Shown: positions 45,646-64,000 of the stretch, one piece after another | Layout of the letters: the number at the start of each line of letters is the position of its first letter | Numbering within the stretch: position 1 is the stretch's first letter | Assembly: GCA_964539505.1 (NCBI GenBank) | Contig: CAZIJS010000003.1 | Coordinates: 305 to 64,304, forward strand | Reading direction: 5' to 3' | From: an uncultured Myxococcales bacterium | GTDB taxonomy: Bacteria > Myxococcota_A > Polyangia > HGW-17 > SLPX01 | DNA length: 64,000 nt | Made by a program: the position numbers and the translations under genes | Notes under the pieces: model-generated | Told to the model about the DNA's origin: nothing | Database searches by the model: none | What the model saw: the letters and a program-made list of their open reading frames with translations, nothing else

Positions 45646-47169
<1,524 letters not shown>

Positions 47170-49162: not shown

Positions 49163-49243
49163 GTCATCGGATGCTTTCACCGCCCTTCGGCATCCTTCGG
49201 CACCCTCAGTACCCTTTCACTCGTATCCCGTCTTTGGATGTCC

Positions 49244-49858
49244 TCAGCCCTTTGTGAAGACGAGACTGTAGAAATCTTCGTAGAGGGGCAGTTGGTCTTC
49301 CAAAACGAGGCCCTGCTGCGTCATGGTGGAGATCACCTGCCCGGGCGCGAGGCGATGGTCTGTGGGCGGTCCGTGGAGTGCCTTGGCATCGGGATCCCAG
49401 TCGACCACCAGGATCCTGCCGTTGTCGCGCAGGATCCGGCGCACCTCCCGGGCAAAGGCATTCCTGTCGGCGACCTCATGGGTCAGGCTCATGGCCAGGG
49501 CCAGGTCGAAGGACTTTGGGGCCAGGGGCCAGGGCTGTTCGTCCAGGTCGTGGAGGACCATCGTGATCCGATCCTGCACACCTGCGCTCGTTGCACGTGC
49601 TTCGAAGGTCTGCAGCATTTCGGAGGAGACATCCAGGCCCGTGACCCGCGCCTCTGGGAGGTGCTGAAGAAGGGGCAGTGCGAAGTAGCCGGTGCCCACT
49701 CCGATGTCGACGATCTGTCTTGGCGCAACGAAAGTCGCCAGCTCCAAGATGGCCGAGGCCGGTTGGAACCGCTTTCGTTCCTCGCTGTGGAGCTTGTGTT
49801 TGTGGGCGGCACGGAAGCGCCGGTGGTTGTGTTGTTTGTGGTGCTCTTCGTCCATCAT
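49244..49858 (-). CDS. Class I SAM-dependent methyltransferase
   Basis: Motif I is IVDIGVGTGYFALPL, followed by VTGLDVS and ILVVDW. The leader is His/Lys-rich. Confidence 0.8.
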   Translation of the reverse strand: MMDEEHHKQHNHRRFRAAHKHKLHSEERKRFQPASAILELATFVAPRQIVDIGVGTGYFALPLLQHLPEARVTGLDVSSEMLQTFEARATSAGVQDRITMVLHDLDEQPWPLAPKSFDLALAMSLTHEVADRNAFAREVRRILRDNGRILVVDWDPDAKALHGPPTDHRLAPGQVISTMTQQGLVLEDQLPLYEDFYSLVFTKG

Positions 49859-50044
49859 GACCGTTTTTCCAGGTGAATGCGTCTCACTGGAAGATGCACC
49901 ATGTCCCGCCGATGGACAACCCCCCGGGCGAAACTTATTTCGCGATGCGCTGTGCCGTCTCCCCTTGGCGGGCCACCAGCCGCCGTCTACGGATCCAATG
50001 CGTGAAAAATGCAGAAAATAGGACAGACCGAGGCAGCGTCCAGG

Positions 50045-51763
50045 TCACTTGTCGCGACCTGGGATCCGGATCCCCTCCAGCCGAAACCGTCCCCGCACCG
50101 CTACGACCTGCGGGTTCACGAAGAGCTGGAGCTTCCAGCCCTTCATCTTGGCCGGATCGGTGGGTGACTGCCACGTCGGCGCGCTCCCGCCGTCCATGCC
50201 AGCCGAGACTTCCGTCGACTTGCCCGCAGTGTCCAGGAACTTCACCGTTTCTAGCTGCCCCAGGCGACCCCCCTTGTACGAGACGACCACGCCCCCCTCG
50301 CTCCCGCGCCGCGGCGTCACGACGAGGCCCATTTTCTTCAGGGTGGGGTGCGCGAGGGGCTTTCCCATCAGACCGGACAGGTTGTCGAAGGTGAGGGTCT
50401 CGCTCCCCCTGGACTCGTACATCACGAAGGTGCCCTCCAGCCTCGCGATGCCCTTGACCGAACCGGAAAGGCCATGGAGCGTAACAGGGAAGGAGAAGCC
50501 ATCCTTGTCGGTCATGCCAAACTGGCGGTCCCGTTGCGACAGCCACTTGGTCATCCGCAAGCTGGTGGAGATGGACTTGACCGGACGGCCCTGGTCGTCC
50601 ACCGCCTTCAGACCGGTGAGGTGCCCGTAGGCGACGGTCCGCGCCGGCACTGCGCCCACCACGGCCAGCTCCAGGCGCAAGGCGGGGCCGTCGTCGTTCA
50701 ACCAGCGCGCCTGTCGTACGCTGACACCGAGGTCGGGCAGCTTGTCGAACAGGTACAGTCGGACATAGCCAGAGCCCCCCTTCTGCGTGACCGCCAGGGT
50801 GCGGCCGTCGGGCGTGAAAGCGGGCGGGCCGGCATCGGCAGCGCCCGCAAGAGTGCTGACCACCTTTCCCGTGGCCACGCTGCGCAGCACGACGTGCTTG
50901 TCCCGGGTCCCCACCGCCAGCCACTGCCCGCTGGGATCGTAGACTGCCGGAGGACGGAGCGCGCCGCCGGCCTGCACGGGCTTCCAGTTCGCCGTGTCCA
51001 GGATCTGCGCCTGGCGCTCGCTGGCGACCGCCAGCCGCTTGCCGTCCCGTCGAAAGCTCAGCGACTCGACGTTGCCGTCGAGCACGGAGATCGTCTTGGC
51101 GAAGGCGCCCTTGGCGAGATCGAACAGGAAGATCTGGCGGTAGCCCCCCGCCACGATGCCCTTGGCGTCGGGCCGGAACGTCACCGACCAGAGCCCGTTG
51201 GCCTTGGGGCCCTTCACCGAATGGAGCAGCGCGCCCTTGCCCACATCGTAGACCAGCAGGGTCCCGTCCTCGCTCACTGCTGCGAGCTTCTTGCCCCGGG
51301 GCCCGAAGGCCAAACCCCGCACCGCCCCGGGGCTCTTGGGCAGGGTCGTGACCGAGTGCGTCTTGCGGTCGATGAGCCGTACCGGACCCTGCTCATAGCC
51401 GACCGCGAGCAGCTTCCCATCGGGGCTGGCAGCCAGGCAGCTCGTCTGCCCCTGCGTCTTCACGCGGCCCATTTCCTGTCCAGTGCCAGCCAGGAGCAGC
51501 GACACCTTGTCACTCGTCGAGGTGGCCACGACGGGCTGCACCGCTCCGCCCCCCGTCAAGAGAGCCAGGCCCGACAGGCTCGAGTCCAAATGATGCGACC
51601 AGGCCAGCCGCCACCTGGGCGTCGCTGGCGCGGGAAGCGGAGCGGCTTTCACATCCTTGGGAGCCTTGCCCGCCTCACCAGACTTGCCAGACTTGCCACA
51701 CCCTCCCGCCGATGCGGCGAGCAGGAGCAGGAGACCACAGGAGCAGAGAGCACATCTTTTCAT
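50045..51763 (-). CDS. WD40/PD40-like beta-propeller lipoprotein with a C-terminal domain of unknown function
   Basis: Lipobox LLAASAGGCG after MKRCALCSCG. Repeats have the form SPDGKLLAVGYEQGPVRLID, GKKLAAVSEDGTLLVYD, DGRTLAVTQKGG. The track ORF starts at 51805. Confidence 0.7.
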   Translation of the reverse strand: MKRCALCSCGLLLLLAASAGGCGKSGKSGEAGKAPKDVKAAPLPAPATPRWRLAWSHHLDSSLSGLALLTGGGAVQPVVATSTSDKVSLLLAGTGQEMGRVKTQGQTSCLAASPDGKLLAVGYEQGPVRLIDRKTHSVTTLPKSPGAVRGLAFGPRGKKLAAVSEDGTLLVYDVGKGALLHSVKGPKANGLWSVTFRPDAKGIVAGGYRQIFLFDLAKGAFAKTISVLDGNVESLSFRRDGKRLAVASERQAQILDTANWKPVQAGGALRPPAVYDPSGQWLAVGTRDKHVVLRSVATGKVVSTLAGAADAGPPAFTPDGRTLAVTQKGGSGYVRLYLFDKLPDLGVSVRQARWLNDDGPALRLELAVVGAVPARTVAYGHLTGLKAVDDQGRPVKSISTSLRMTKWLSQRDRQFGMTDKDGFSFPVTLHGLSGSVKGIARLEGTFVMYESRGSETLTFDNLSGLMGKPLAHPTLKKMGLVVTPRRGSEGGVVVSYKGGRLGQLETVKFLDTAGKSTEVSAGMDGGSAPTWQSPTDPAKMKGWKLQLFVNPQVVAVRGRFRLEGIRIPGRDK

Positions 51764-52424
51764 CGGAAAACCATCCTGACCCGGCAAAACCGGAAGAGAG
51801 CTCATTTGCTGTGCGGGGCGATACCTTCCGGCGCAGCAATGGGCGGATTAAAGACCTGCGCGTCGCCGGGGCCTTCTCCCCGAAGACATATGGCGTGCAG
51901 GCACTTCGTGTCATCTTACGCCGATTGCCCCGTGAGTCGTGCAAGGCGGTCTTGGTGGGGCAATTCCAAATCCAAGCGATGTGTAAGGCTACATCCGTCC
52001 GGCGATGGGTGTCAAGCCTGGCCGGCGCTGACGCTGAGCTCTTCGCGCTGTCCCTGGCGGCGGTCCGGCAGGCGCCCGGCGGGCGCCGACCAGCCGTGGC
52101 TTAAGATTTGGCCACTGTGGCGCCTTTCATCTCGCTAGTGGCCGTCAGGGGGCCCAACCTGGGGGAAACTTGTTGCAGCGCTTCGCAAATCCCACGGAGC
52201 CACAGGGCCCTATCGGCAGCGCGAATGGCTCGTCTTTGTGTCCTTTCCGATTGGGGGATGTGTCTGGTATTGACCGGACGTCAAGGTGGGGTCGGGCCAA
52301 GATGGTATGGGAAACTCACCAGGATTGCTTGACAGGGAGTAGCGGCCTTGGCAACCATGACGCAAGCTTAGATTCCGGGACGATTCGGCCGGCTCGACGG
52401 CTGGTCCTCGCACGAGGAGGGATC

Positions 52425-54707
52425 GTGTCCACGACAAAGTCCAGATCATCTCACAACAGAGATGTCCCGAGATATCGGCGGCAGGACGATCTGGATCCGG
52501 CGCGGGATGACTGGGGGGGGCTGACCCGGCCGCTCGGGGAAGGGGCCGAGGTGTCTCGTCTGGGCCATCCTCCCTGTAGCCGGGCCTGCCCCGTGGGGAC
52601 CAACGTCAAGGGGTACGTCACCGCCATTGCCGAGGGACGATTCGAAGAGGCCGAGTCCATTGCCAGGCAGGCCAATCCCATGGCCTCGGTCTGCGGGTAT
52701 ATCTGCTCTCGGCCCTGTGAGGCGGAATGCTCCCTGGCCGAGCAGGCGGGCCGGCCCGTTCCGGTGCGTGCTCTCAAGGCGTTCGTCTGCGATTTCGTCC
52801 GGGACCAGGGCCGGCTCTCTCCAGTCAGGCAGGCCGAATCGGACTGGGGCGCGGGGTTGTCGGTGGCAGTGGTGGGAGCGGGTCCTGCCGGGCTGAGTGC
52901 CGCCAGGGAACTGGCCAGGCTCGGGGCCCAGGTGACTGTCTTCGACGGCAGGAACCAGGCGGGGGGGCTGCTGGCCCGAGAGGTGCCAGCGTTCCGACTG
53001 GATCGGTCCGAGCTGGAACGGGACGTGGAAGAGATTCGTGCCTGGGGGGTGCGTTTCGAGTTGGGCCGGCTCCTTGGGGCCCGAGACCTGGAGCGGCTCT
53101 CCAGGGAACACGAGGCGGTCTTGTTGGCCACCGGGGCGCACCGGACGGTCCTGCCCGAGCCTTTCGGCCAGGGCTTTGTCCCGGCAGGCGTGGCGCCGGT
53201 TCTGGATTGTCTCGGGTCGGAAGAGCCCGTGAATTTTTTAGAGGGCGCGGCCAGGGTGCTGGTGGTGGGCGGGTCGCCTGCGGCCCTGGCAGCAGCCAGG
53301 ATCCTGGCAAGGGCCGGGCGGGACTGTGCCTTGCTGTTGCCGGGTGGGGAAGACGATGCTGCGGCAGACCAGGACGATCTCCTGGCTGCCCGGGCCGAGG
53401 GCGTGGAGGTGACAGAGCATATCGTTCCTGTGGGACTTCGCACCCTGGGCCGGCGCGTCGTGGGGCTGCTCTGTCGAGACGGCATGGCCGGGACTCAAAA
53501 CACCAGGGAGTTTGGCGCCGAGGCAATTTTGGTGGACGGGTTTCGTTGCAGCGCCTGGACCGCGGCGGATCTGCCAGACGGTCTGTCCTTGGGGCCGGCT
53601 GGCACCATCGCCGTGGACCACGAGACAGGAGCCACCAGTCGGCCAGGGTTTTTCGCGGCGGGCGAGGCGGCCCTGGGACCCAGGGGCGTCATCGGGGTGG
53701 TGGCTTCGGGCAAGCGGGCGGCCCAGGGGATTTTGTCGTCTCTGCGGCCGCAACATCCCGAGGCAGCGCGTTGGACCGGGACCGGGCCGGCCTGGCGGCA
53801 GGGCCCCGACGAGCAGGGGCTGCGGCTGTCGTTTCCCACGGAGGCTGCCGGTCGGGTGGGCCGACCGTCCTTGCCAGGGTCCGTGGGGCGGGATCCCGCC
53901 GGGGACGAAGCGGTTCGTTCCCTGGAACACGTTGCCGTCCAGGCAGCCAGGCAGTGCCTTCGGTGCGGTCGCTGCGAGGACTGTTGGACCTGTTCGAGCC
54001 ATTGCCCCGACATCCAGGCCGTGGCGCCCGACTCGCAGGGACGTGACCGGCTCGTCCGGCTGGATCGGCAGGTGGCGCAGACCACGGATGGGTTGGATGC
54101 TTCGGCCCTGTTGGCCCGGGTGGAGCCATCGGCCTGCACGGGCTGCGGCAGGTGCGAAGAGGCCTGTCCCTACCATGCCGTCAGGCTCTTTTTGAAAGAT
54201 GGCGCCGTGGTGGCCCAGGTGCAGGCATCGGCCTGTCGGGGCTGTGGTCGCTGCACCGCTGTCTGTCCCACTGCGGCCGTCACGGTCCCCTGGAGCGTCC
54301 AGGGTGGGGCCGCTGCGCCGGGTGCCGCGCCGGATATCGTGGTGTTCCACGCGAACGGTGGAGCCCTGGCTCATCCGGGTCTTGAACCAGTCTCTGGGAT
54401 CGAGAGCCGGTTCGTTCCCTGCACCGGGGCGTTGGCCTTGTCTGATGTCCTGGTTGCGCTGGAACGCAGCAGGCTGGGTGTGGCCCTGGTGGGTTGTGAG
54501 CACTGTCGGTTCCCTCATGAGCATATCGACTGTCCGGCCCAGGGTCTGGCCGAGAGGGTTTCCGGCCTGGTCGGGATCGCGGGCCTGGACAAGCAGGTGG
54601 CTTACTTCGAGGCGGGCAGTGGGCCTGACATGGCGCCGGTCCTGGCCGGGATACAAGATTCGTTCGCCCGAGCAGGGCGCGATTCCAACGGGGAGGTGCC
54701 TCGATGA
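52425..54707 (+). CDS. Multidomain iron-sulfur flavoprotein: GltD/NfnB-like NAD(P)H oxidoreductase + polyferredoxin + MvhD/FlpD-like domain
   Basis: In-frame GTG at 52425 behind GGAGGG. Motifs: CSRACPVGTNVKGY...NPMASVCGYICSRPCEAEC; VAVVGAGPAGLSAARELARLGAQVTVFDG; CLRCGRCEDCWTCSSHCP; CTGCGRCEEACP; CRGCGRCTAVCP; FVPCTGALALSDVLVALERSRLGVALVGCEHCRF. Confidence 0.8.
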   Translation: MSTTKSRSSHNRDVPRYRRQDDLDPARDDWGGLTRPLGEGAEVSRLGHPPCSRACPVGTNVKGYVTAIAEGRFEEAESIARQANPMASVCGYICSRPCEAECSLAEQAGRPVPVRALKAFVCDFVRDQGRLSPVRQAESDWGAGLSVAVVGAGPAGLSAARELARLGAQVTVFDGRNQAGGLLAREVPAFRLDRSELERDVEEIRAWGVRFELGRLLGARDLERLSREHEAVLLATGAHRTVLPEPFGQGFVPAGVAPVLDCLGSEEPVNFLEGAARVLVVGGSPAALAAARILARAGRDCALLLPGGEDDAAADQDDLLAARAEGVEVTEHIVPVGLRTLGRRVVGLLCRDGMAGTQNTREFGAEAILVDGFRCSAWTAADLPDGLSLGPAGTIAVDHETGATSRPGFFAAGEAALGPRGVIGVVASGKRAAQGILSSLRPQHPEAARWTGTGPAWRQGPDEQGLRLSFPTEAAGRVGRPSLPGSVGRDPAGDEAVRSLEHVAVQAARQCLRCGRCEDCWTCSSHCPDIQAVAPDSQGRDRLVRLDRQVAQTTDGLDASALLARVEPSACTGCGRCEEACPYHAVRLFLKDGAVVAQVQASACRGCGRCTAVCPTAAVTVPWSVQGGAAAPGAAPDIVVFHANGGALAHPGLEPVSGIESRFVPCTGALALSDVLVALERSRLGVALVGCEHCRFPHEHIDCPAQGLAERVSGLVGIAGLDKQVAYFEAGSGPDMAPVLAGIQDSFARAGRDSNGEVPR

Positions 54708-55978
54708 CCAGCAACCTTCCTACGGGGTCCCAGCAGAGAGTCTCGGACTGGCGCGCATTTGCTTCCCGGTTCGACCTGGACGGGATGCGCGCCGTCTTGA
54801 ACGAATCGGCCTGTCCTTTCGACGCGGAGGATGAGAAGTTTTCCGCAAGAGCCCTGCTGGATGCGGTCCAGGCCGGTGATCTTTCGGGCGACACACCACT
54901 CCACACGTTGTGGCATTGTCTGGGCTGTGGCGCCTGTACGCCTGGGGCCCAGTCACCAAGGGTCAGTTTTGCCGCGTTGGTGCTCCAGGCCAGGAGGCTG
55001 GTGGTGGCCCAGGGCGAGCCCAAGCCGGAACTGTTTCGCGGGGCGTTTGCCTCGCTTGGGCGCCTGGCGGATGCCTCGGGCGGTCTGCGCCCTCGTCGTC
55101 TCCTCGGCGAGCAGGTGCCGGTCTGGCCCCATGGGGAGACGGTGTTTTGGACGGGCCGGATGGGGCTGGCCGCGGCCTTGCTGGATGCAGCCCAGGCGGC
55201 CCGGGTCCAATCCGCCCTGGTCCGCAGTTTCCATGCCCTCGAACGGGCGGGCTTGAAGCCTGCGGTCCTCGACCCAGAGCCAATCCTGGATTTCGAGTCC
55301 GCCTGGTGGGGAGACCGAGACACCTTCTTGCGTCGCGCCGATCTGGTGGGCAGCCTGTTTAAGCGGCTGGATGTCAGTCGGGTGGTGACCGCCGATCCCA
55401 TCAGCAGTCTGCTTGTCCAATGGGCGGTGGAAGAGCGGGGGTTGGACGTTTCGGTGGAATCCTTCGTGGAGCGTTGGCGCCAGATGCTTGCGGGCCAGTC
55501 CATAGCAAATCAGTCCACAGCGGACCAGCCCAGAGCGGACCAGCCCAGGGTCGGATTCCAACGAGCCCGGTCTGTCGCGGGGGGCGAGCCGCTGGCGGTC
55601 CTTCCTGGTCCATTGGTCAACCTGAGTTTTCTTGCAACAGAGCCGGTGCTCGACTCCTGGAGTCCGCCGTCCCTGGATGACCTGGTCTGGGCGCTGGGCT
55701 ACGAGCCCAAGGTCCTTTTCGCCGAGGAGGCCCGCAGCCAGCCGGGCATGGCTTCTGTCGGGTTGCGGAGCCTGGCGCTGGTTTCGGCCAGGTCGGCGGC
55801 CCTTTGTCGGCGGCTGCTCCGGGAGGCGGACCGGGTCCATGCCAGAAAGGTGCTCGTGTCAGACCCCATGGCCTGGGCTGCGCTGATGGACGTGTCACGG
55901 ACCGGGACCTGGCGACAGGCCCTGGCCGGGCCGGTGCTTCCAGGGGAGTTGGTTCCCCTGGACGGGAGGGAGGGGTGA
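54704..55978 (+). CDS. HdrD/GlcF-like Fe-S subunit homolog with most cluster cysteines missing
   Basis: The ATG overlaps the upstream stop (ATGA). One partial ferredoxin motif (WHCLGCGACTP) plus an upstream ACPF. CCG-domain-like ends read VVTADPISSLL and VLVSDPMAWAAL, where Cys would be expected. There are only 5 Cys in 424 aa. Confidence 0.6.
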   Translation: MTSNLPTGSQQRVSDWRAFASRFDLDGMRAVLNESACPFDAEDEKFSARALLDAVQAGDLSGDTPLHTLWHCLGCGACTPGAQSPRVSFAALVLQARRLVVAQGEPKPELFRGAFASLGRLADASGGLRPRRLLGEQVPVWPHGETVFWTGRMGLAAALLDAAQAARVQSALVRSFHALERAGLKPAVLDPEPILDFESAWWGDRDTFLRRADLVGSLFKRLDVSRVVTADPISSLLVQWAVEERGLDVSVESFVERWRQMLAGQSIANQSTADQPRADQPRVGFQRARSVAGGEPLAVLPGPLVNLSFLATEPVLDSWSPPSLDDLVWALGYEPKVLFAEEARSQPGMASVGLRSLALVSARSAALCRRLLREADRVHARKVLVSDPMAWAALMDVSRTGTWRQALAGPVLPGELVPLDGREG

Positions 55979-55980
55979 CC

Positions 55981-58053
55981 ATGGCCGGGCGCATCACGAA
56001 CCATCCCATTTTGCCGCCCCTGTCTGGTGGGTCCGTGTCCTTTTCGTTCGAGGGCCGGACCATGACCGGACGACAGGGCGAGCCGGTGGCCTCGGCTCTC
56101 TATGCCAACGGGGTGCGGATCTTTGGTCACCATCCCCGAGATGGCGGCCCGCAGGGCATCTTTTGTGCGAACGGGCAATGTTCCCAATGCCTGATGATCG
56201 TGAACGGAAAGCCGGTCAAGTCCTGCATGGAGCCCCTTGCCGAGGGCATGGTGGTGGAGGCCTGCGAGGGATTGCCGGTCCTTCCCACCGACGATCGGGC
56301 GGGTGAGCCCCGGCCGCCTGAAGAAATCTCGGTGGACGTGCTCGTGGTGGGGGGCGGACCGGCTGGGATCAGTGCGGCCACTGAGCTGGGCCGGGCCGGC
56401 CTGTCGGTGCTCCTCATCGACGACAAGGCGGAAATCGGCGGGAAGCTGACGCTCCAGACCCACACGTTTTTCGGGTCCATCCGGGCCTGCCATGCCGGCA
56501 GCCGGGGCATCGACATCACCGGCAAGCTGGCCGCAGAGTTGCCGTCCCTCGACGCGGTCGAAGTCTGGACGAACACCACGGCGGTGGGTGTGTTTGCCGA
56601 CAAGGCGGTGGGCCTCGTCAGGGAAAAGCGATACATCCTGGCCAGGCCGAAGGTGCTGTTGGTAGCGGCAGGCGCCAGGGAAAAGAGCCTCAGCTTTCCC
56701 GGGGCCGATCTGCCCGGCGTCTACGGCGCCGGTGCGTTTCAGACACTGGTCAACCGGGACCTGGTCAAGGCGGCCCGGCGCCTGTTCATCGTGGGCGGCG
56801 GCAATGTCGGTCTCATTGGAGGGTACCACGCTCTGCAGGCCGGCATCGACGTGGTGGGCCTGGTCGAGGCGCTGCCGCAGGTGGGGGGCTACAAGGTCCA
56901 TCTCGACAAGTTGCGCCGTCTGGGCGTGCCCATCTGGACATCCCATACCGTGGTGCGGGCCGAAGGCACCTCGGAGCTGGAGCGGGTGGTGGTGGCGCGC
57001 TGCGACGAGCGGTTTTCTCCCATCGAAGGAACATTTCGAGCCTTTGACATCGATACCTTGCTCATTGCCGTGGGGCTGTCGCCCGTGGACGAACTCATGG
57101 GACAGGCAAAGGAGGCCGGGCTTCCTCTGTATGCGGCGGGAGACGCCGCCCAGATCGCCGAGGCGAGCGCGGCCATCTTTTCGGGCAAGATCGTGGGTCG
57201 CACCATGGCAAGGGATTTGGGCCGGGATCTGCCCTTGCCCGAATCATGGGGTGAAACGGCGGCGGTGCTTCGGAGCCGGCCGGGCCGCACCGAAGACGTG
57301 GAGTTCCAGGATCCCGGCCTGCCGGTGTTTCCCGTGATCAGTTGTCTCCAGGAGATTCCCTGCAATCCCTGCACCCAGGTCTGCCCCGTGGGATCCATCA
57401 CCATTCCCGATGGCAGCATCACCTCCAGGCCCGTTTTTTCCGGGGACTGTCTCGGCTGTGCCCGCTGCGTGGTGGTTTGTCCGGGCCTTGCCATTCGGCT
57501 GGTGGAGAAAGGACGGCCCGGCTTTTCACTCCTCACGCTGCCCTGGGAGTTTTCCGAGGAGCGGGTCTTGGTGGGTGAGAGGGTCCAGACCGTGGACCTG
57601 GAGGGTCAACTCGTGGGAGAGGGGCTGGTGGTTGCGGTCAAGGGTCGCAAGGATTTCGACCGCCGGCGCCTGCTGGTGGTCGAGGTGCCGGAGCAAGAGG
57701 CTCTCGCCGTGGCGGGATTTCGAATCCAGCAGCCCGAGATGGGGATTCCCGCAGAGATGAGCAGCGAAGAAGAAGACCCCATCGTCTGCCGTTGTGAGCG
57801 GATACGACGTTCGGAGATCGTGGCTGCCATCCGGTCGGGCATCACGGACTACAATGTGCTCAAAGCCGTGACCAGGGCTTCCATGGGAGGCTGCGGCGGC
57901 AAGACCTGCCGGGAGTTGGTCATGCGCCTGTTTCGGCAGGAGGGTGTGGCACCAGACCGGGTGACTCCTCCCACGGTGCGGCCTCTGGTCACAGAGGTGC
58001 GCATGGATTTGTTTGCCGGTCTGGACCAGGGCGACGACGGCGAGACGAGGTGA
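55981..58053 (+). CDS. Fused 2Fe-2S (SoxA/HcnA-type) + FAD/NAD(P) oxidoreductase (HcnB/OoxA/LhpF-like) subunit with a BFD-like 2Fe-2S domain
   Basis: ATG 2 nt after the upstream stop. Motifs: IFCANGQCSQCLMIVNGKPVKSC; VLVVGGGPAGISAATELGRAG; IVGGGNVGLIGG; YAAGDAAQ; CNPCTQVCP..CLGCARCVVVCP; CRCERIRRSEIVAAIRSG...GGCGGKTC. Confidence 0.8.
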   Translation: MAGRITNHPILPPLSGGSVSFSFEGRTMTGRQGEPVASALYANGVRIFGHHPRDGGPQGIFCANGQCSQCLMIVNGKPVKSCMEPLAEGMVVEACEGLPVLPTDDRAGEPRPPEEISVDVLVVGGGPAGISAATELGRAGLSVLLIDDKAEIGGKLTLQTHTFFGSIRACHAGSRGIDITGKLAAELPSLDAVEVWTNTTAVGVFADKAVGLVREKRYILARPKVLLVAAGAREKSLSFPGADLPGVYGAGAFQTLVNRDLVKAARRLFIVGGGNVGLIGGYHALQAGIDVVGLVEALPQVGGYKVHLDKLRRLGVPIWTSHTVVRAEGTSELERVVVARCDERFSPIEGTFRAFDIDTLLIAVGLSPVDELMGQAKEAGLPLYAAGDAAQIAEASAAIFSGKIVGRTMARDLGRDLPLPESWGETAAVLRSRPGRTEDVEFQDPGLPVFPVISCLQEIPCNPCTQVCPVGSITIPDGSITSRPVFSGDCLGCARCVVVCPGLAIRLVEKGRPGFSLLTLPWEFSEERVLVGERVQTVDLEGQLVGEGLVVAVKGRKDFDRRRLLVVEVPEQEALAVAGFRIQQPEMGIPAEMSSEEEDPIVCRCERIRRSEIVAAIRSGITDYNVLKAVTRASMGGCGGKTCRELVMRLFRQEGVAPDRVTPPTVRPLVTEVRMDLFAGLDQGDDGETR

Positions 58054-58060
58054 TCGATCC

Positions 58061-59227
58061 ATGGCTTCGGAAAATTACGATGCGGTGGTGATCGGTGCGG
58101 GTAGCGTGGGTTGTCCCACGGCCTATTTTTTGGCCAAGGCCGGGCTGTCGGTGCTCGTGGTTGAGTCTCGTCCCGCCTGCGGACAGGGCCAGAACAAGGC
58201 GGCCATCGGCGGGGTGCGGGCCACGCATTCAGATCCGGCCAAGATCCAGCTTTGCCGTGACAGCCTGGAGATCTTTGGTTCCTGGAAAGAGGAACATGGT
58301 TTCGATTTGGGTTGGAAGCAGGGCGGATACTGCTTTCCGGCATACAGCGACGAGCTCGAAGAGACGCTGCGCGCCTTGGTGCAGCGGCAGCGATCCTACG
58401 GACTCGATATCGACTGGATGGATGCAGATCGCGTTGCAGAGCTGGTTCCCGGCATTTTAAGGGAGGGCCTTCGCGGGGGAACCTACTCTCCGGGGGACGG
58501 CCAGGTCAGTCCCCTGCTCGCAGCCGAGGCCTTTCGCCGGGCATCGGTGGAACTGGGCGTCAAATTCCGGTTTTCCGAACCAGTGACCGGCATGGACGTG
58601 AGTGAAGGTAAGGTGTCGGCGGTGATCACGAGCAAGGGCCGTTACGGCGCAGCCATGGTGGTCATCGCCGCCGGGGCCGAGGCCAGGGAGGTGGGCGCCC
58701 TGGCAGGGCTGGACCTGCCCGTGACGCCAGACAGCCACGAGGCCGCCATCACCGCCCCGGTGGAGCAGTTTCTCGGGCCCCTGGTGGTGGATCTTCGCCC
58801 AGGGCCCGAGGGCAGGACAGCGAATTTCTATTTTGGTCAAAACCAGGAAGGACAGATCATTTTTTGTTACACGCCCAAGACATTGTTTGTGGGCACAGAC
58901 CGGCGCAATACCTCGGAGTTTCTTCCCATTGCCGCGGCCAGGCTCGTCAGGCTCGTGCCCAGGTTGCGGCACATGCTCGTGCGGCGCACCTGGCGAGGCC
59001 TCTACCCCATGACCCCGGACGGCAGACCCATCTGCGGGCCCGTGACTGGGGTCGCGGGATTGTTCCTGGCCGTGGGCATGTGCGGCCAGGGCTTCATGCT
59101 CGGGCCGGGGGTGGGCAGGAGCCTGGCCTCCCAGATGCTGGGGCAAGGGCCCGTCATCGACGCAGAACTGTGGCAGGGGCTTGCTTTCGAGCGGGATTTC
59201 GCCGCTGGTGACGAGGCGCTGAAGTGA
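58061..59227 (+). CDS. FAD-dependent oxidoreductase, DAO family (SoxB/HcnC/OoxB/LhpB-like beta subunit)
   Basis: ATG 7 nt after the upstream stop. Motifs: YDAVVIGAGSVGCPTAYFLAKAGLSVLVVE; GGTYSPGDGQVSP; GMCGQGFMLGPGVG. Confidence 0.85.
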   Translation: MASENYDAVVIGAGSVGCPTAYFLAKAGLSVLVVESRPACGQGQNKAAIGGVRATHSDPAKIQLCRDSLEIFGSWKEEHGFDLGWKQGGYCFPAYSDELEETLRALVQRQRSYGLDIDWMDADRVAELVPGILREGLRGGTYSPGDGQVSPLLAAEAFRRASVELGVKFRFSEPVTGMDVSEGKVSAVITSKGRYGAAMVVIAAGAEAREVGALAGLDLPVTPDSHEAAITAPVEQFLGPLVVDLRPGPEGRTANFYFGQNQEGQIIFCYTPKTLFVGTDRRNTSEFLPIAAARLVRLVPRLRHMLVRRTWRGLYPMTPDGRPICGPVTGVAGLFLAVGMCGQGFMLGPGVGRSLASQMLGQGPVIDAELWQGLAFERDFAAGDEALK

Positions 59228-59290
59228 TGTCTGGAAAAGGGAAAAACCGAATCGGGCGAGCCGTTGGCCCGGCATAAGGAGGACGCATCA

Positions 59291-61855
59291 GTGACTGACG
59301 AGATCAGAAAGGACGGGGATGGGCAGGACAAGGAAACAGGCACTTCTTCGTTGGGTGCAGGCGAACCGACCGGGGCCGAGAAGATGGAATCGTCCGGGGC
59401 CGAGGTGAAAGAAACATCCGGCAGCGAGGGATCGGATGCAGAGCCGGTGGGGTTCGGCGAAGCGTTCACCAAGGGAATCAAGGAGGCGGTCGACCCCTTC
59501 AAGAGCCTGCTCCATACATCCCAGGCTCTTTGGGGCATCTACTTGTCCTACCTCATCGAGGGGCTCGTCTATTTTGGCATCTTGACGATTCTGGGTAAGT
59601 ACCTCTCCGAAAACGTGGGCCTCAAGGATCTCCATGCCGGGTGGGTGTATAGCTTTTTCACCGGAGGCATCACCCTGGCCATGCTCTTCATGGGGGGCAT
59701 CGCAGACAAAATCGGCGTGCGCAAGGCCCTGCTGTTGTCCATGGGGACCATGGTCCTGGGCCGTTTGGCCCTGGCGGCTTCGGGAACGTTCTTCCCTCAC
59801 GGGCTGGGCCTGTCTTCCGGCATGTTCTACATGGTGTCTCTGGGCCTTTTCATCGTGGTGCTGGGCTACGGCATGTACCAGCCTGCCGCCTATGCCGGGG
59901 TCAAGCAGTTCACCGACAAGAAGTCGGCCACCATCGGCTATGCCATGATCTATGGCCTCATGAACCTGGGAGCCTTTTTTTCCGGGCTCCTCTCTCCACC
60001 GATCCGCCAGCATTTTGGCATCGTCTCGGTGTTCTGGGTCTACGCAGGCCTCACCATGCTTTCCTTCCTGGTGGTGGCCCTGCTCCTGACCAGGCGGGCG
60101 GTGCAGGCGGGAACGCTCACAGACATCGATGCTGAAGAGACAGAAGACGACGAGGCCGACCAGGCAGATGGCGAGTCGGGTGCGAACGAAGATGCCGGTG
60201 CGCACACCGCTTCGAAGAAGAAAGAACCACTCTGGACCCCGGTCTTCATCGGCCTGGTGGCACTGTCGGTGGCTGCAGCCGGCCTCTTGGGCTACCTTGG
60301 GTTCACGGCGCCCAAGTTGGAGTCTCAAAAGGCGTTGGAGCGGGCCTCCGAGCTGTTCAAAAAGGCTATCGGGCCCGTGGGGGGTGCCAAGGACGCAGCC
60401 GCGTTGGCCAAGGCCGTCGAGAAGACGGAGAGAGATCTGGCGCCCCTGGCGGCCAAGGTCACACCCAAGGGCCCTGCCGGCGCCAGGCCGAACCCGAACC
60501 TGTATCGCGGGATTGCCGCCTGGCTCAAGATACAGACCAGGTTACTCCAGTCTGCAAGAGCCAAAGCCGGTCCTTTGACAGCCAAGGAGGATGTGAGTCC
60601 AGCCGCGGCCAAGGCTGCGTCCCGCGAGGTGCGGGCCCTGGGTCTGTGGCAATTGGCTTCTGCCTATGCCCTGGTGGGAAAAGTGGACGGGGCCGTCCTG
60701 GACCGACTTCGTCGGCGCATGAAGATGCGTTCCGAAAAGATGGTTCCCCTGGCTGAGAGCGACAGGAAATCCCTGCTTTCAGTCCTGGCCGAGCGCCGGG
60801 CCCCGAACATCGTGGCGGCCTGCGCCGCCAGGGCCAGGAAGGCTGTCGAGCATGTCAGGGTCCAGGGCCCGGTGGGAGCCGCGCTCATCCTGGAGGCCCA
60901 GGCTTCTTTGTTCGAGACGCTTGCCAGGCGCCTGAGGACCCAGGACGATCCCCAACTCGCCGGCCTGGCCAAGACCCTGCTCTTGGAAGATTCCGTGTTC
61001 CTGCTCAAAGAATTGGGGCCGAGTCTGGCTTCCAGGAAGGGGAAGGCCGATGGAGGCAAGAGCCTGCTCGCCTCCTACCTGGCGAGCGCCTCGCGCAGAG
61101 CCGCCGGCCTGGTAGACCAGGCCGGTGCAGCCCAGAACATGCCTCGGATGGAAGCGGTGATGCATTGGCTCCGGCGTTTCGGACTGGTCACGATCCTGTT
61201 GATCCTGTTTGTGACCTTCACGCTCATCTACATGCTCAAAAGACGGCCGGACCATCCGTTCCGGGATTCGCGGTTCGTGTTTTTCATTTTCATTTTGATT
61301 CCCGTCCAGACCCTGTTTGCGCACAACTGGCTCACCTTGCCCTACTATATCAACCGGGCCTTCGGCGGGAGCTGGGTCGGGGACTCTTTCGAGTTTTTCT
61401 CCAACATCAATCCGCTGCTCATCTTTTTCCTGACGCCCGTGGTGGCGGCGCTCACCATGAGGTTTCGCGTCTACAAGATGATGGTGGCAGGGACCTTCGT
61501 CATGGCTGCCCCCACGTTCCTGCTGGCCCTTGGTCCCAACCCGGTCTTGCTCCTGGTCTATATCCTGCTCATGTCCGTGGGCGAGGCCATGTGGCAGCCT
61601 CGGTTCCTGCAGTGGGTGGCGGAGATTGCGCCCAAGGGTAAGGCCGGGTCCTACATGGGGATTGCCCAGTTCCCTTGGTTCCTCACCAAGGTGGTCACAG
61701 GCATCTATTCCGGGTACTTCCTGGCACGCTACTGTCCCATGGTGGGTCCGCAGAATACCGAGCTGCTCTGGCTCATCTACGGTATCATCGCCATGGCCAG
61801 TCCCTTGGCCCTTTGGATGGCCCGTGGCTGGATGATGAAGGGCAAGAACCTGTGA
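59291..61855 (+). CDS. MFS transporter, POT/PTR2-like topology, with a ~300-aa helical insert between the two halves
   Basis: GTG at 59291 behind AAGGAGG. The N-terminal six-helix bundle contains GGIADKIGVRKALL. An extra helix pair (LWTPVFIGLVALSVAAAGLLGYLGF / FGLVTILLILFVTFTLIYML) brackets a long Ala/Leu/Lys/Arg-rich soluble segment. A C-terminal six-helix bundle follows. Confidence 0.7.
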   Translation: MTDEIRKDGDGQDKETGTSSLGAGEPTGAEKMESSGAEVKETSGSEGSDAEPVGFGEAFTKGIKEAVDPFKSLLHTSQALWGIYLSYLIEGLVYFGILTILGKYLSENVGLKDLHAGWVYSFFTGGITLAMLFMGGIADKIGVRKALLLSMGTMVLGRLALAASGTFFPHGLGLSSGMFYMVSLGLFIVVLGYGMYQPAAYAGVKQFTDKKSATIGYAMIYGLMNLGAFFSGLLSPPIRQHFGIVSVFWVYAGLTMLSFLVVALLLTRRAVQAGTLTDIDAEETEDDEADQADGESGANEDAGAHTASKKKEPLWTPVFIGLVALSVAAAGLLGYLGFTAPKLESQKALERASELFKKAIGPVGGAKDAAALAKAVEKTERDLAPLAAKVTPKGPAGARPNPNLYRGIAAWLKIQTRLLQSARAKAGPLTAKEDVSPAAAKAASREVRALGLWQLASAYALVGKVDGAVLDRLRRRMKMRSEKMVPLAESDRKSLLSVLAERRAPNIVAACAARARKAVEHVRVQGPVGAALILEAQASLFETLARRLRTQDDPQLAGLAKTLLLEDSVFLLKELGPSLASRKGKADGGKSLLASYLASASRRAAGLVDQAGAAQNMPRMEAVMHWLRRFGLVTILLILFVTFTLIYMLKRRPDHPFRDSRFVFFIFILIPVQTLFAHNWLTLPYYINRAFGGSWVGDSFEFFSNINPLLIFFLTPVVAALTMRFRVYKMMVAGTFVMAAPTFLLALGPNPVLLLVYILLMSVGEAMWQPRFLQWVAEIAPKGKAGSYMGIAQFPWFLTKVVTGIYSGYFLARYCPMVGPQNTELLWLIYGIIAMASPLALWMARGWMMKGKNL

Positions 61856-61887
61856 CGGAAGGACTGGCCGGGGATCGAGAAAGGAGA

Positions 61888-63465
61888 ATGGTGGCGATGC
61901 AACGCAACATGCTGGCAGCAGTGCTGGGTGTCTGTCTGTTCGGGTCGGCGGTTTCCGCCATGGCCCAAGGCGGGACGCACAGCCGTGGCTTGCGCCAAGG
62001 GGCCAGGAATCCCGGTGCACAGGCCAAGAAGGCGGACAACGAGGTCGCTGCCCTCGCCGCGCAGGTCCAATCCCTCGAAGAGCGTCTCGCAGCCATGAAC
62101 GTGGAACTGGACCGGCTCCGCCGCCAGGCAGCCAGTCGGCCCGAACTCCTGGGACGTCTCGATCGTCTCGAGGCACTGGCCCGAAAGCTCAGAGAGGACC
62201 TCGATGCCCTCAGGATTCGCCAGGCGGACATCGAGCGGGATCGGGACCAGGTGGCCAAGGCCATGGAGAAGCAAAAGTCCGGGGCCTGGCACATGAAGTA
62301 CCGAGATGGGTTTTTGTTCCGTTCACCTGCAGACCGGTTCGCCTTCAGGTTCAGAGGGTTCATCGTGGGGCGATACAGCCTGGGTGCGGCTCAGACCTCC
62401 GATGCCACGGCGGATCCTCAAGAAGGGGTGGACGAAAACGGGTTTCGGCTTGTCCATGCCAAGTTCGGGTTCTTCGGGCACGTCTGGTTCTCCCAATTGA
62501 CCTACGCATTGGAAGTGGAAACCGCCGGAGGTCCCAAGGTCAAAAAAGCCTTTTTCAAGATCCAGCCCTGGTCGTTTTGGAGCATCACCATCGGTCAGCA
62601 CAAGGTCATGGATTCCTGGCAAGAGCTTTCTTCGACGGGCAGACTCCAGCTCGCCGATAGGTCCCGGGCCGTCAAAAACTTCGCCCACGGCTACGATGTC
62701 GGCTTGAGCACCACTTTTTCGTTCTGGCATCAAGGCCTGGTGGCCCAGATCGGGGTGTTCAACGGGTCGGGTGAGAACGTGCCCAACGACGACAACCGGC
62801 TTCTCTACATCCTTCGGCTCGGCACGGCCCCTCTGGGCCCTGTCCCCCATATCGAAGAGGACGCCGAGCGGTCGGCCCATCCCAAACTCTGGCTGGGCAC
62901 CTCGGCGGAGTTCAACCGGGTGGCCATCGGTGACCTGGACGGCGACGGCGACATGGACGACAAGCAGATCTACACGGTGGGAGCAGAGATGGCCTTCTAC
63001 TGGAAGGGGTTCAACTTCCAGTCCGAGTTCTTTGCCGCCATCGGGCGCCATACGGTGAAGGATTGCCCCACGTCCTATCCTGCTACGAACCGGAAATGCA
63101 ACAAAGTGGATACGAGTTACGGCGCCTATGCCCAGGCCGGCTACATCATCGGCCGCGGCTGGCAGTTGGCCGGCCGGTTTTCCTACACAGATGTCTTCGA
63201 CAGCGGCTGGAGCGGAGATCTGAGCAGTGGAACCTGGAAGCGGACCCTCAAGTCCGTGGTTGCCCAGCCCAAGGGATACCGGCTCGACCACGTCTACGAG
63301 GCCACCGCCGGCCTGATGTACGACCCATGGAAGAAACACCTACGCCTGGGGCTTACCTATTCCTTCCAGCGCGAGGCTTTCACCTCGAACCTGTCGTCTC
63401 TGGGCCCCTTGACCCTGAACCGGAACCTGCACGTGGGATCTTTGGTGGCCCGGCTCAATTTCTGA
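61888..63465 (+). CDS. Outer-membrane porin, phosphate-selective porin O/P (OprO/OprP)-like, with an N-terminal coiled coil
   Basis: AAAGGAGA RBS. Signal peptide MLAAVLGVCLFGSAVSAMA. Coiled coil: VAALAAQVQSLEERLAAMNVELDRLRRQ. Beta-strand body beginning DGFLFRSPADRFAFRFRGFIVGRY. Terminal strand ...LVARLNF. Confidence 0.6.
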   Translation: MVAMQRNMLAAVLGVCLFGSAVSAMAQGGTHSRGLRQGARNPGAQAKKADNEVAALAAQVQSLEERLAAMNVELDRLRRQAASRPELLGRLDRLEALARKLREDLDALRIRQADIERDRDQVAKAMEKQKSGAWHMKYRDGFLFRSPADRFAFRFRGFIVGRYSLGAAQTSDATADPQEGVDENGFRLVHAKFGFFGHVWFSQLTYALEVETAGGPKVKKAFFKIQPWSFWSITIGQHKVMDSWQELSSTGRLQLADRSRAVKNFAHGYDVGLSTTFSFWHQGLVAQIGVFNGSGENVPNDDNRLLYILRLGTAPLGPVPHIEEDAERSAHPKLWLGTSAEFNRVAIGDLDGDGDMDDKQIYTVGAEMAFYWKGFNFQSEFFAAIGRHTVKDCPTSYPATNRKCNKVDTSYGAYAQAGYIIGRGWQLAGRFSYTDVFDSGWSGDLSSGTWKRTLKSVVAQPKGYRLDHVYEATAGLMYDPWKKHLRLGLTYSFQREAFTSNLSSLGPLTLNRNLHVGSLVARLNF

Positions 63466-63511
63466 TTGGGTGGAACAAGACACCATTGCTGCTTGATGGA
63501 GATTCGGCTCA

Positions 63512-64000
63512 TCATGCGGCGCCTCCCTTCCAATGGTCACCAGGGAGATGGCGGACCAGAGCGTGGTGGACGGTCTTCCACGCCCGACCGACGTCGTAGT
63601 CCAGGCCAGGTCGCAGGAGCGGACGGATGTCGGTCACGAAGAGTGCGTCGCGCAGCTTGGCGTCGTTTGCTTCAAACTGAGCCCGATTCGGTATGGTCGC
63701 TTCTGAGTCCATGTATGCGGTGAAGGTCTGGAGGATTTGCTCAGGGGGGAGGTACAATCGGTCTCGCCGGTCTCCACCATGACCCGGCGCCGCAGGGTGC
63801 CCGTAAGCGGTAGCCATCCGGCCATCCGTTCCGCCAATTGCCTTATCCGTTGCTCGTTACAAACTGGCCACTTTTCGAGAGATTTCAGGCGCGCCACGGC
63901 GTCTTCCACCGTGGTGAAGGGCCACACCGCCAAGCTTGGCGTGGAGTTCCTTCAGCCCTTCGCGCAAGATGCGGAGGAAGTGCTCTCGCCGCGCCTCGTC
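63512..64000 (-). pseudogene. Possible frameshifted gene remnant (three consecutive minus-strand fragments in different frames), family unknown
   Basis: From the right edge, frame 1 reads ...DEARREHFLRILREGLKELHAKLGGV and then degenerates to a stop. Frame 2 continues WPFTTVEDAVARLKSLEKWPVCNEQRIRQLAERMAGW... Frame 3 then continues ...RLYLPPEQILQTFTAYMDSEATIPNRAQFEANDAKLRDALFVTDIRPLLRPGLDYDVGRAWKTVHHAL to a stop at 63512. Confidence 0.3.

Follow-up and report, generated by a model that had tools for sequence, protein, structure and literature searches.

An operon for a DAO-family dehydrogenase and a conserved, partly degenerate electron-transfer partner in an uncultured Myxococcales bacterium

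The locus

Four consecutive open reading frames (ORFs), named A to D here, lie on the forward strand of a 64,000-nucleotide stretch of contig CAZIJS010000003.1 (assembly GCA_964539505.1) from an uncultured Myxococcales bacterium. The whole stretch is called the window. A preliminary description had read these ORFs as one unit, in which proteins resembling parts of electron-bifurcating complexes are coupled to a two-subunit flavoprotein dehydrogenase. Comparison with related loci shows that the unit combines a known dehydrogenase family, ORFs C and D, with a conserved and uncharacterised electron-transfer partner, ORFs A and B, which is partly degenerate in the lineage of the window. The genes of the unit, followed by a gene 5' of it, are:

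52425-54707, + strand, ORF A, 760 amino acids, GTG start preceded by GAGGAGG
54704-55978, + strand, ORF B, 424 amino acids
55981-58053, + strand, ORF C, 690 amino acids
58061-59227, + strand, ORF D, 388 amino acids
59291-61855, + strand, major facilitator superfamily (MFS) transporter gene, 854 amino acids, Pfam MFS_1 at 1.8e-31
61897-63465, + strand, Porin_O_P-type outer-membrane porin gene, the final gene of the unit, 522 amino acids, Pfam Porin_O_P at 1.6e-9
45811-47169, + strand, NADP-specific glutamate dehydrogenase (GDH) gene, NCBIfam PRK09414 at 791 bits against a cut-off of 536

Read directly in the sequence, the A/B junction is an ATGA overlap (54704-54707), B and C are separated by 2 nucleotides (55979-55980) and C and D by 7 nucleotides (58054-58060), and a purine-rich, GGAGG-type ribosome-binding site lies 5' of the start of each of ORFs A to D. 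All four same-strand ORFs and all three junctions of the preliminary description were found where it had placed them, and its proposal of a single coupled unit is supported by the overlap, by the tiny gaps and by the recurrence of the order A-B-C-D in L001, one of about 80 species-level related loci, all from metagenome-assembled genomes, that are labeled here with L-numbers. The gap between ORF D and the MFS gene is 63 nucleotides and the porin gene comes next, so the unit extends past ORF D.

An automatic public gene call puts the start of ORF A at 52593 rather than at 52425. The start at 52425 is the better one, because a start at 52593 would lose the PPCSRACP motif that is kept in every relative. 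A leader of 620 nucleotides lies 5' of ORF A, with a divergent WD40 gene beyond it; the leader gave no Rfam match, and no regulatory RNA was identified in it. A search of the whole 64-kb window against Rfam at gathering thresholds and for tRNA genes returned no matches, and a scan for promoters and terminators over 51700-64000 gave nothing beyond shuffled expectation. No transmembrane helices are predicted in ORFs A, B, C or D. The GC content at codon positions 1 and 2 is raised in A (0.74/0.57) and in B (0.71/0.52) relative to C and D, because both proteins are rich in alanine, glycine and arginine, and the value at position 3 is a normal 0.76 for both. Long antisense ORFs overlie A and B and can mislead ORF-based gene finders.

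The C-D dehydrogenase pair

ORF D matches the Pfam DAO family over its full length (E = 2.4e-69), as expected from its earlier description as a DAO-family flavoprotein. It carries GAGSVG at residue 12 and RTW at residue 309, the latter aligned with the RTW of 1Y56_B. This chain, the beta subunit of L-proline dehydrogenase from P. horikoshii, is also its closest solved relative, with an end-to-end alignment at 5.3e-49; dimethylglycine dehydrogenase (3.4e-27) and then SoxB and glycine oxidase (about 1e-25) follow. On these matches, ORF D is assigned as a catalytic subunit of the beta type, a dehydrogenase with flavin adenine dinucleotide (FAD) as cofactor.

The domains that had been read in ORF C are recovered as Pfam Fer2_4 (8.9e-25), Pyr_redox_2 (1.9e-24) and Fer2_BFD (8.4e-10). 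Near the N-terminus lies a gamma-type [2Fe-2S] site, C62x4C67x2C70x11C82, whose four cysteines are invariant in 63 homologues. Two dinucleotide motifs are present, GGGPAG at residue 124 for FAD and a second site with GGGNVG, as well as a BFD-type [2Fe-2S] site, C603xC605-x32-C638x4C643. A 2x[4Fe-4S] ferredoxin insert at residues 455-501, with the motifs CLQEIPCNPCTQVCP and CLGCARCVVVCP, is a feature absent from the preliminary list. All 16 cluster cysteines of ORF C are essentially invariant over 63 C-D pairs, the sole one to drop being C464, to 0.97 in the clade of C-D pairs that has no A/B-type partner. By motif, four clusters are predicted for ORF C, two of them [2Fe-2S] and two [4Fe-4S], along with FAD and a further dinucleotide site. 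Its solved relatives are SoxA (2GAG_A, 2.6e-25) and PH1363 (1Y56_A, 1.2e-21), and more than 7000 homologues were matched, with a D homologue nearly always 3' of them. ORF C is assigned on this basis as a fused gamma/alpha-type subunit and the electron-transfer partner of D.

The heteromeric DAO family takes in HCN synthase, opine dehydrogenase (OpnDH), D-hydroxyproline dehydrogenase (D-HypDH) and sarcosine oxidase (PMC4575208). The motifs that define the group are the gamma- and BFD-type [2Fe-2S] motifs and RxW in the beta subunit, and the Arg-X-Trp of the beta subunit is a putative site for flavin mononucleotide (FMN) at the alpha/beta interface (PMC4575208). The C-D pair shows every tested sequence feature of heteromeric DAO-family dehydrogenases. 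Judged by sequence, C and D together are a heteromeric dehydrogenase of this family, in the group of L-proline dehydrogenase (L-ProDH), D-HypDH, OpnDH and HCN synthase, and the earlier placement beside HcnABC and the opine, D-hydroxyproline and archaeal proline dehydrogenases stands on motifs and on homology alike.

Narrower identities were tried and rejected. HCN synthase and aerobic sarcosine oxidase do not fit, given that, among its solved relatives, ORF D is much nearer to L-proline dehydrogenase and that the match to SoxA covers residues 19-376 of ORF C only. Similarly, GlpABC was set aside because the NCBIfam match to GlpA is limited to the BFD region of ORF C.

ORF A: a flavoprotein with ferredoxin motifs and an MvhD-like tail

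The features of ORF A on which its assignment depends are:

52569-52730, + strand, Fe-S motifs of the Fer4_20 domain, PPC-SRA-CP and VCGYICSRPCEAEC, six cysteines
52872-52892, + strand, ADP-binding fingerprint for FAD, VGAGPAG, intact
53262-53369, + strand, degenerate second Rossmann site for NAD(P)H, VVGGSPAALAAAR against GGGxxAxDxAR and LLLPGGEDDAAAD against YRRxxEEMPA
53649-53669, + strand, C-terminal FAD motif, FFAAGEA
53955-54269, + strand, three CP-ending cysteine motifs, CLRCGRCEDCWTCSSHCP, CTGCGRCEEACP and CRGCGRCTAVCP, at residues 511-528, 571-582 and 604-615
54339-54707, + strand, MvhD/FlpD-like tail, by profile-level homology

ORF A matches Pfam Fer4_20 (2.8e-17), Pyr_redox_2 (7.6e-18) and Fer4_7 (5.2e-12), with Fer4_7 and Fer4_21 spanning residues 564-619. 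Its best solved relatives are the StnC-type chains 9BOV_A and 8OH5_C (1e-49, residues 48-619), and GltD (2VDC_G) and NfnB (5JCA_L) come after them. The cysteine pattern of the Fer4_20 domain is kept in all A-like proteins of the related loci, and an alignment with GltD shows that the RCxxC pair of GltD is not present in the Fe-S domain of ORF A. The three CP-ending ferredoxin motifs reported in the preliminary description are confirmed at the positions listed, and are common to the aligned A-like proteins.

The nucleotide-binding site was compared with GltD, with the StnC-type chains and with 13 A-like proteins. ORF A reads GGSPAALA in place of the fingerprint GGGxxAxD, and LPG in place of YRR. 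The motif keeps its canonical form in the A-like proteins of L018, L019, L021, L027, L029, L033 and L044, so that Thermoplasmatota, Spirochaete and other versions keep the site, and it is degenerate in the window, L001, L004, L007, L008 and L016, and partly in L022. Binding of NAD(P)H by this ORF A at the classical site is unlikely on this comparison, although the loss of a motif is not proof of lost binding. The earlier reading of A as a GltD/NfnB-type NAD(P)H module therefore holds for its descent, and does not hold for its NAD(P)H capacity, as the fingerprint is degenerate.

The tail gave E = 1.5e-3 with Pfam FlpD (PF02662), at 19.0 bits below the cut-off of 22.3, and residues 557-722 match NCBIfam HdrA2 at 3.5e-11. 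A profile built from five orthologous tails matches the MvhD chains 7BKB_F (1.4e-9), 9SW2_D (1.1e-7) and 5ODC_D (3.3e-6), and the A-like proteins of L016 and L018 match FlpD itself at 4.7e-11 and 5.8e-15. The MvhD/FlpD tail of the preliminary description is thus recovered by the five-tail profile, and falls below threshold for the Pfam model. The CNWC cysteines of the tail are replaced (FHANGG); PCTG, GCEHC and a clade-specific DCPA cysteine are retained, and binding of a cluster by the tail is uncertain. By descent, the matches identify ORF A as a GltD/NfnB/StnC-type flavoprotein joined, in this order, to a Cys-rich motif, a 2x[4Fe-4S] ferredoxin domain and an MvhD-like tail.

ORF B: an HdrD/EtfD fold without the CCG cysteines

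ORF B has no match in Pfam or NCBIfam, the best being Fer4_8 at E = 0.067. Only two or three close relatives were found among 5.8 billion proteins, and an exact look-up of the ORF B sequence of the window returned no record. An exhaustive profile search with ORF B brought in 74 distant relatives. When 34 of its relatives were aligned, the CCG domain was found in 30 of them and an HdrC-type Fer4_8 domain in 33. The family profile matches EtfD of M. smegmatis (9OJN) at 5.9e-55, HdrC at 1.6e-20 and HdrB at 4e-9. An AlphaFold2 model of ORF B (predicted local distance difference test 85.3, predicted template-modelling score 0.87) has as its best Foldseek matches EtfD (9OJN, 2.9e-7), HdrB (5ODC_B, probability 1.0) and LutA. 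Profile and model together identify ORF B as HdrD-like in descent and in predicted fold.

The canonical relatives have 20 conserved cysteine columns, and ORF B retains four of them. In the CCG domains, FxGC is replaced by WTGR, CCG by LDF or SVG, and CPxC by DPIS or DPMA, and none of the cysteine columns of these domains has a cysteine in ORF B. The pair of CxxCxxCxxxCP motifs of an N-terminal 2x[4Fe-4S] domain is not complete either. The cysteines that are retained, C37 (followed by P38) and C72xxC75xxC78, are invariant in all 37 aligned sequences. In the two-cluster ferredoxin fold, ligation usually crosses between the two motifs. By this rule, C37 with C72, C75 and C78 would be the four ligands of one [4Fe-4S] cluster.

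Every B-like protein beside a C-D pair has some loss of CCG cysteines. Therefore, the conserved role of the B-type subunit is probably not CCG-cluster chemistry, and ORF B, with the residues that it has, cannot be expected to act as a disulfide- or quinone-reducing HdrD. A link to the membrane or to quinone through B, as in EtfD or GlpC, was considered and rejected, since there is no transmembrane helix and there are no CCG cysteines. The earlier label of B as HdrD/GlcF-like is right as to fold and descent; as a catalytic part of the Hdr type it fails, the CCG cysteines being gone.

The search with standard hidden Markov models that had been proposed as a check on the four proteins recovers Fer4_20, Pyr_redox_2, Fer2_4, Fer2_BFD and DAO, fails for B and leaves FlpD below threshold. 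ORF B and its relatives go wholly unrecognised by Pfam and NCBIfam, and the homologues of ORF C are labeled only as FAD-dependent oxidoreductase, as sarcosine oxidase subunit alpha or with similar generic reductase names.

Linkage of A-B with C-D across genomes

The order A-B-C-D-MFS-porin recurs in L001, with the GDH gene and a tetratricopeptide repeat (TPR) gene 5' of it, and L004 carries A-B-C-D-MFS. Identity to the proteins of L001 is 62-64% for A, 53-54% for B, 84% for C and 87% for D, and the alignment of A reaches the N-terminus. For A and B, synonymous sites are saturated at amino-acid identities of 54-62%. In addition to the window, 15 loci have an A-like gene just 5' of C (L001, L004, L007, L008, L014, L016, L018, L019, L021, L022, L027, L029, L033, L044 and L067); these loci belong to Myxococcota or 'Deltaproteobacteria', Thermoplasmatota, 'Methanobacteriota', Spirochaetaceae and UBP1. 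Either a B-like gene follows the A-like gene or the two are fused, with fusion products of about 1000-1300 amino acids; Thermoplasmatota are among the loci with such A-B fusions. In a further five loci, a Fer2_4-polyferredoxin-MvhD protein takes the place of the A-like gene. In two loci from Myxococcota/Polyangia (L009, 4232-7855; L015, 3973-7476), the MvhD-polyferredoxin partner has an extra N-terminal region of about 550 amino acids, for which no Pfam match was found.

A neighbour-joining tree of concatenated C and D, which includes 14 of the 15 A-like loci and the window, has two deep clades, and the window and all partner-bearing loci in the tree fall in one of them. When the count is limited to loci with enough upstream sequence, an A/B-type or MvhD-polyferredoxin partner is present in 20 of 27 loci in the clade of the window and in none of 27 in the other (Fisher p = 5.5e-9). 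The restriction of the partners to one clade and the existence of gene fusions argue that the adjacency of A-B and C-D is not due to chance; under the proposed check of co-conservation, A-B-type partners prove to be co-inherited with one C-D clade in several phyla.

In the related loci, the longest ORFs were taken naively as the genes. Antisense shadow ORFs in the high-GC DNA limited the use of an all-against-all clustering of the ORF calls from 80 loci, such that only the clusters for an amino-acid ABC transporter, for 1-pyrroline-5-carboxylate (P5C) dehydrogenase and for NuoF-like proteins were usable. NuoF/HydB-like genes, with Complex1_51K, NADH_4Fe-4S and thioredoxin-like 2Fe-2S domains, accompany the A-like gene in L015, L018, L022 (3243-5126, for example) and L067, in an arrangement that recalls bifurcating modules of the StnABC or HydABC type. 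The protein P0113 (L085, 7001-9717) is a 904-residue fusion of FlpD, ferredoxin and C with D 3' of it; the translation of the locus is not identical to the deposited protein, and a frameshift or an annotation merge is possible.

In the literature searched, no paper was found that describes the A-B-C-D subunit set, which agrees with the earlier statement that no characterised enzyme with this composition was known to its author; a paper from this literature that mentions sarcosine oxidase does so solely as a structural comparator.

Substrate and uptake

Evidence on the substrate comes from the nearest solved homologue and from the neighbours of related loci. A P5C dehydrogenase gene lies directly 5' of C in L065 and 5' of A in L044, giving the order P5C dehydrogenase-A-B-C-D in the latter; the two genes score 806 and 798 bits against the TIGR01236 equivalog cut-off of 614. 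The same aldehyde-dehydrogenase cluster adjoins C in L061, L074 and L083, and in L057 and L063 genes resembling proline racemase are found 5' of C. P5C reductase, peptidases and peptide transporters are among the neighbours seen singly, and genes for LIV-type amino-acid ABC transporters lie near C-D in L036, L051, L059, L072 and L073. The NADP-dependent GDH gene is syntenic in the window and L001. Genes for archaeal L-proline dehydrogenase also cluster with proline racemase (PMC4364671). Because ORF D is nearest to L-proline dehydrogenase and proline-pathway genes adjoin its relatives, the substrate is most likely proline or a close imino acid, with L- or D-proline as the leading candidate.

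The MFS gene lies directly 3' of D in three genomes, those of the window, L001 (14420-16960) and L004 (13313-16024). At 854 amino acids, the MFS protein of the window has twice the usual length. It carries a soluble, helical, Ala/Lys-rich insert of about 280 residues (at about residues 340-620) between helices 6 and 7, and no NCBIfam model matches it. The porin has a signal peptide at its N-terminus, followed by a coiled-coil segment with weak matches to several coiled-coil Pfam families, and its gene closes the operon in both the window and L001. The pairing of a porin with an operon for a cytoplasmic dehydrogenase suggests a dedicated uptake route.

A different substrate, such as sarcosine, glycine, a D-amino acid, hydroxyproline, pipecolate or an opine-like secondary amine brought in through the MFS protein and the porin, is a possibility that we take seriously while rating it clearly below even. 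The breadth of the heteromeric DAO family, from HCN synthase, opine dehydrogenase and D-hydroxyproline dehydrogenase to sarcosine oxidase, leaves room for it, as do the NCBIfam matches to ThiO, SoxB and D-amino acid dehydrogenase, which are all sub-threshold. The window also has no P5C dehydrogenase, and the MFS protein and porin are unusual and would be atypical as proline transporters. Against these points, ORF D is far nearer to the beta subunit of L-proline dehydrogenase (5e-49) than to SoxB or glycine oxidase, neighbours of the P5C dehydrogenase or proline-racemase type are found in several related loci, one of them with A-B-C-D, and the GDH gene is syntenic.

Proposed function and its alternatives

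Taken together, the motifs of ORFs A to D provide for three or more flavin or dinucleotide sites and about 10 Fe-S clusters. Given that A has no canonical NAD(P)H fingerprint and B has no CCG clusters, A-B of the window looks like a flavin/Fe-S relay or adaptor, rather than an NADPH oxidoreductase or a disulfide reductase. A role of this kind is proposed for A-B because long, coupled ORFs persist with conserved FAD and Fe-S motifs. The reading that we favor, to which we give about an even chance, is a six-gene operon that serves to take up and oxidise a small imino or amino acid, with proline as the most likely one and A-B as the relay.

In this proposal, the FAD of ORF D would oxidise the substrate, and the electrons would cross the C-D interface and then pass through the clusters of C. 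They might enter the FAD of A via the MvhD-like tail and the ferredoxin domain, with the single cluster of B en route. Most likely, a soluble A-B module would dock on C-D and carry electrons between the Fe-S chain of C-D and a soluble carrier, which could be ferredoxin, a pyridine nucleotide at some other site, such as GGGNVG in C, or both. In the clade of the window, electrons could end at the GGGNVG site of C, on an external ferredoxin or on another partner. We infer complex formation, proline as the substrate, the direction of electron flow and the acceptor from the motifs, homologies and neighbours given above; the same is true of coupling to NAD(P)H or ferredoxin and of bifurcation.

Several points weigh against this proposal. 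Proline, at about -120 mV, cannot reduce ferredoxin or NAD(P)+ unaided, so a simple relay to either would be thermodynamically incomplete in the absence of a second driving input, and none was identified at the locus. Proline as the substrate is deduced from the closest solved homologue and from the genes that adjoin related loci in other genomes; near the operon in the window there is no P5C dehydrogenase gene, only those for GDH and transporters. The sequences of A and B change at a much higher rate than those of C and D (identity to L001 is 53-64% for the former pair and 84-87% for the latter), and several cofactor motifs of A and B are eroded, so their function could be fading. The C+D tree is a neighbour-joining tree without support values, and the gene calls in the loci, all from metagenome-assembled genomes, are naive.

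Because the proline/P5C couple is far more positive than NAD(P)+ or ferredoxin, an anaerobic version would need a second input of low potential, which is the logic of Nfn or of lactate dehydrogenase-Etf. A true confurcating or bifurcating enzyme built on Nfn logic is unlikely, in our estimate, and would work as follows. The FAD of A would take one electron from the substrate via D, C and the MvhD-like [2Fe-2S] cluster and a second from reduced ferredoxin via the [4Fe-4S] clusters of A, and NAD(P)+ would then be reduced; the reverse is equally possible. In its favor, A is homologous to NfnB and StnC, which are parts of bifurcating enzymes, and its tail resembles MvhD, the adaptor through which electrons enter the Hdr complex. 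Relatives in Thermoplasmatota and other phyla keep a canonical GGGxxAxD/YRR site for NADPH, NuoF-like genes lie 5' of A-like genes in four loci in a manner that recalls StnABC, and thermodynamics would demand such coupling in an anaerobe. On the other side, the degenerate fingerprint in the clade of the window leaves no obvious hydride site in A, the operon has no ferredoxin gene, and bifurcation is not a property that can be read from sequence. That the wider A-B-C-D family is an unrecognised flavin-based confurcating or bifurcating class, in which proline/P5C or a related imine is coupled to ferredoxin and NAD(P)(H), is a proposition that we hold to be just as doubtful. The same low rating applies to its further details, in which the NfnB-like flavin would be fed by an MvhD-type adaptor and the clade of the window would be derived, with a GltD-fold flavin that has no NAD(P)H site of its own, like HdrA. 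If true, such a family would supply the missing physiological acceptor of the 'dye-linked' proline dehydrogenases.

Alternatively, A and B could be decaying relics, non-redox scaffolds or genes nearing loss, with C-D working alone. The loss of the NAD(P)H motif, of the CNWC cysteines of the tail, of all CCG cysteines and of one ferredoxin cluster of B points this way, as do the faster divergence of A and B and the fact that half of the sampled C-D pairs have no such partner. We consider this quite improbable, since A and B, at 53-64% identity, remain long, intact and coupled ORFs across three genomes, precisely the four ligands of one [4Fe-4S] cluster are invariant in B, the remaining Fe-S and FAD motifs of A are conserved, and B is modeled with high confidence as a folded HdrD-like protein. 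Finally, A-like and HdrD-like proteins are common, promiscuous modules and standard models miss B, yet it is very improbable that A-B comes from an unrelated redox system that happens to lie 5' of C-D, given the start/stop overlap and tiny gaps, the order shared with L001 and L004 and, in a more diverged version, with loci from Myxococcota, Thermoplasmatota, Spirochaetes and UBP1, the clade-specific association (p = 5.5e-9) and the fusion proteins.

To our knowledge, the proline, hydroxyproline and opine dehydrogenases of the heteromeric DAO family have been described only as 'dye-linked', and we know of no natural acceptor for them in anaerobes or archaea. One large clade of them is co-inherited with, and sometimes fused to, modules derived from Nfn/Stn, MvhD and HdrD, from Myxococcota-type bacteria to Thermoplasmatota. 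The A-B module is thus a concrete candidate for the missing electron route, and a candidate for a new bifurcating family. The version in the window can serve as a natural experiment, as the proteins persist after the loss of the NAD(P)H site and of the catalytic clusters of HdrD; it can show which parts of the module are needed for electron relay and for docking.

Other genes of the window

A methyltransferase gene and the WD40 beta-propeller gene (49242-51805, - strand) lie between the TPR gene and ORF A. L001 differs from the window in that the TPR gene is directly 5' of A, with no two-gene insertion. Farther away, paralogous proteins of 566 and 535 amino acids (8348-10048 and 11873-13480, both - strand) have GILT and DsbA/thioredoxin-like regions; GILT (gamma-interferon-inducible thiol reductase) domains are uncommon in bacteria. 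The window also encodes a 1010-residue protein (39124-42156, + strand) with a PPDK_N domain (phosphoenolpyruvate-utilising, ATP-binding) in its C-terminal half only, an 856-residue sulfatase with a long N-terminal extension (35114-37684, + strand) and an FG-GAP/ASPIC protein (27660-30119, - strand).

Comparison with known systems

The archaeal 'dye-linked' L-proline dehydrogenases comprise an alpha4beta4 type, PH1363/PH1364 (PDB 1Y56), and an alpha-beta-gamma-delta type, PdhA/B/F/X of Thermococcus. As in these enzymes, the alpha and beta genes are adjacent in the window, ORF D aligns over its full length with 1Y56_B and has the GxGxxG and RxW motifs in common with it, and genes for proline racemase or the proline pathway cluster with relatives. 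A gamma-type [2Fe-2S] motif is found at the N-terminus of ORF C, where it is fused to the alpha part, and the FAD domain comes next. Unlike the archaeal subunits, ORF C is a 690-residue fusion with a 2x[4Fe-4S] insert and a BFD [2Fe-2S] domain that matches PH1363 over residues 15-273 only, and the archaeal enzymes are described without partners of the GltD, MvhD or HdrD type.

The enzymes HcnABC, OdhABC/OoxAB and LhpBEF also have a gamma [2Fe-2S] site, an alpha subunit with FAD and CxC...Cx4C, and a DAO-type beta subunit with RxW. They differ from the window in being aerobic, dye- or respiratory-chain-linked alpha4beta4gamma4 enzymes without the ferredoxin insert or an A/B-type partner. ORF D is probably less similar to their beta subunits than to that of L-proline dehydrogenase. 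The cofactors of this type are FAD, FMN and [2Fe-2S], and the cysteine pairs of the BFD motif are separated by 15-20 residues in OpnDH, in contrast to 32 in ORF C (PMC4575208).

With NfnB (NfnAB, 5JCA), GltD (2VDC) and StnC (StnABC, 8OH5), ORF A aligns over residues 48-440 and has in common the Fer4_20 Fe-S domain, the FAD fingerprint and the two-Rossmann fold; with the StnC-type chains, the ferredoxin part aligns as well, up to residue 619. The clade of ORF A departs from these proteins in the missing NAD(P)H fingerprint and YRR, the absent RCxxC pair of GltD and the fused MvhD-like tail, and its partner is a DAO-family dehydrogenase rather than NfnA, GltB or StnAB. The tail itself aligns with the MvhD/FlpD adaptors of the Mvh-Hdr and Fdh-Hdr complexes (7BKB_F, 9SW2_D, 5ODC_D) and is placed after a 2x[4Fe-4S] domain, as in HdrA2-type proteins. 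It is unlike those adaptors in scoring below the Pfam cut-off, in having HANGG for CNWC and in the DCPA cysteine that is conserved in the clade instead.

ORF B shares with HdrD, HdrBC, GlcF, LutA, GlpC and EtfD an HdrC-like helical ferredoxin domain and two HdrB-like CCG-fold domains. It differs from these proteins in that all of the about 10 CCG cysteines are replaced, as are three from the first ferredoxin motif, and in having no membrane anchor. Since these cysteines are replaced, ORF B would have no non-cubane cluster and no disulfide or quinone site, with one [4Fe-4S] cluster possible. A precedent for the pairing of a DAO/BFD dehydrogenase with an HdrD-like subunit is GlpABC, which is membrane-linked and has no A-type protein.

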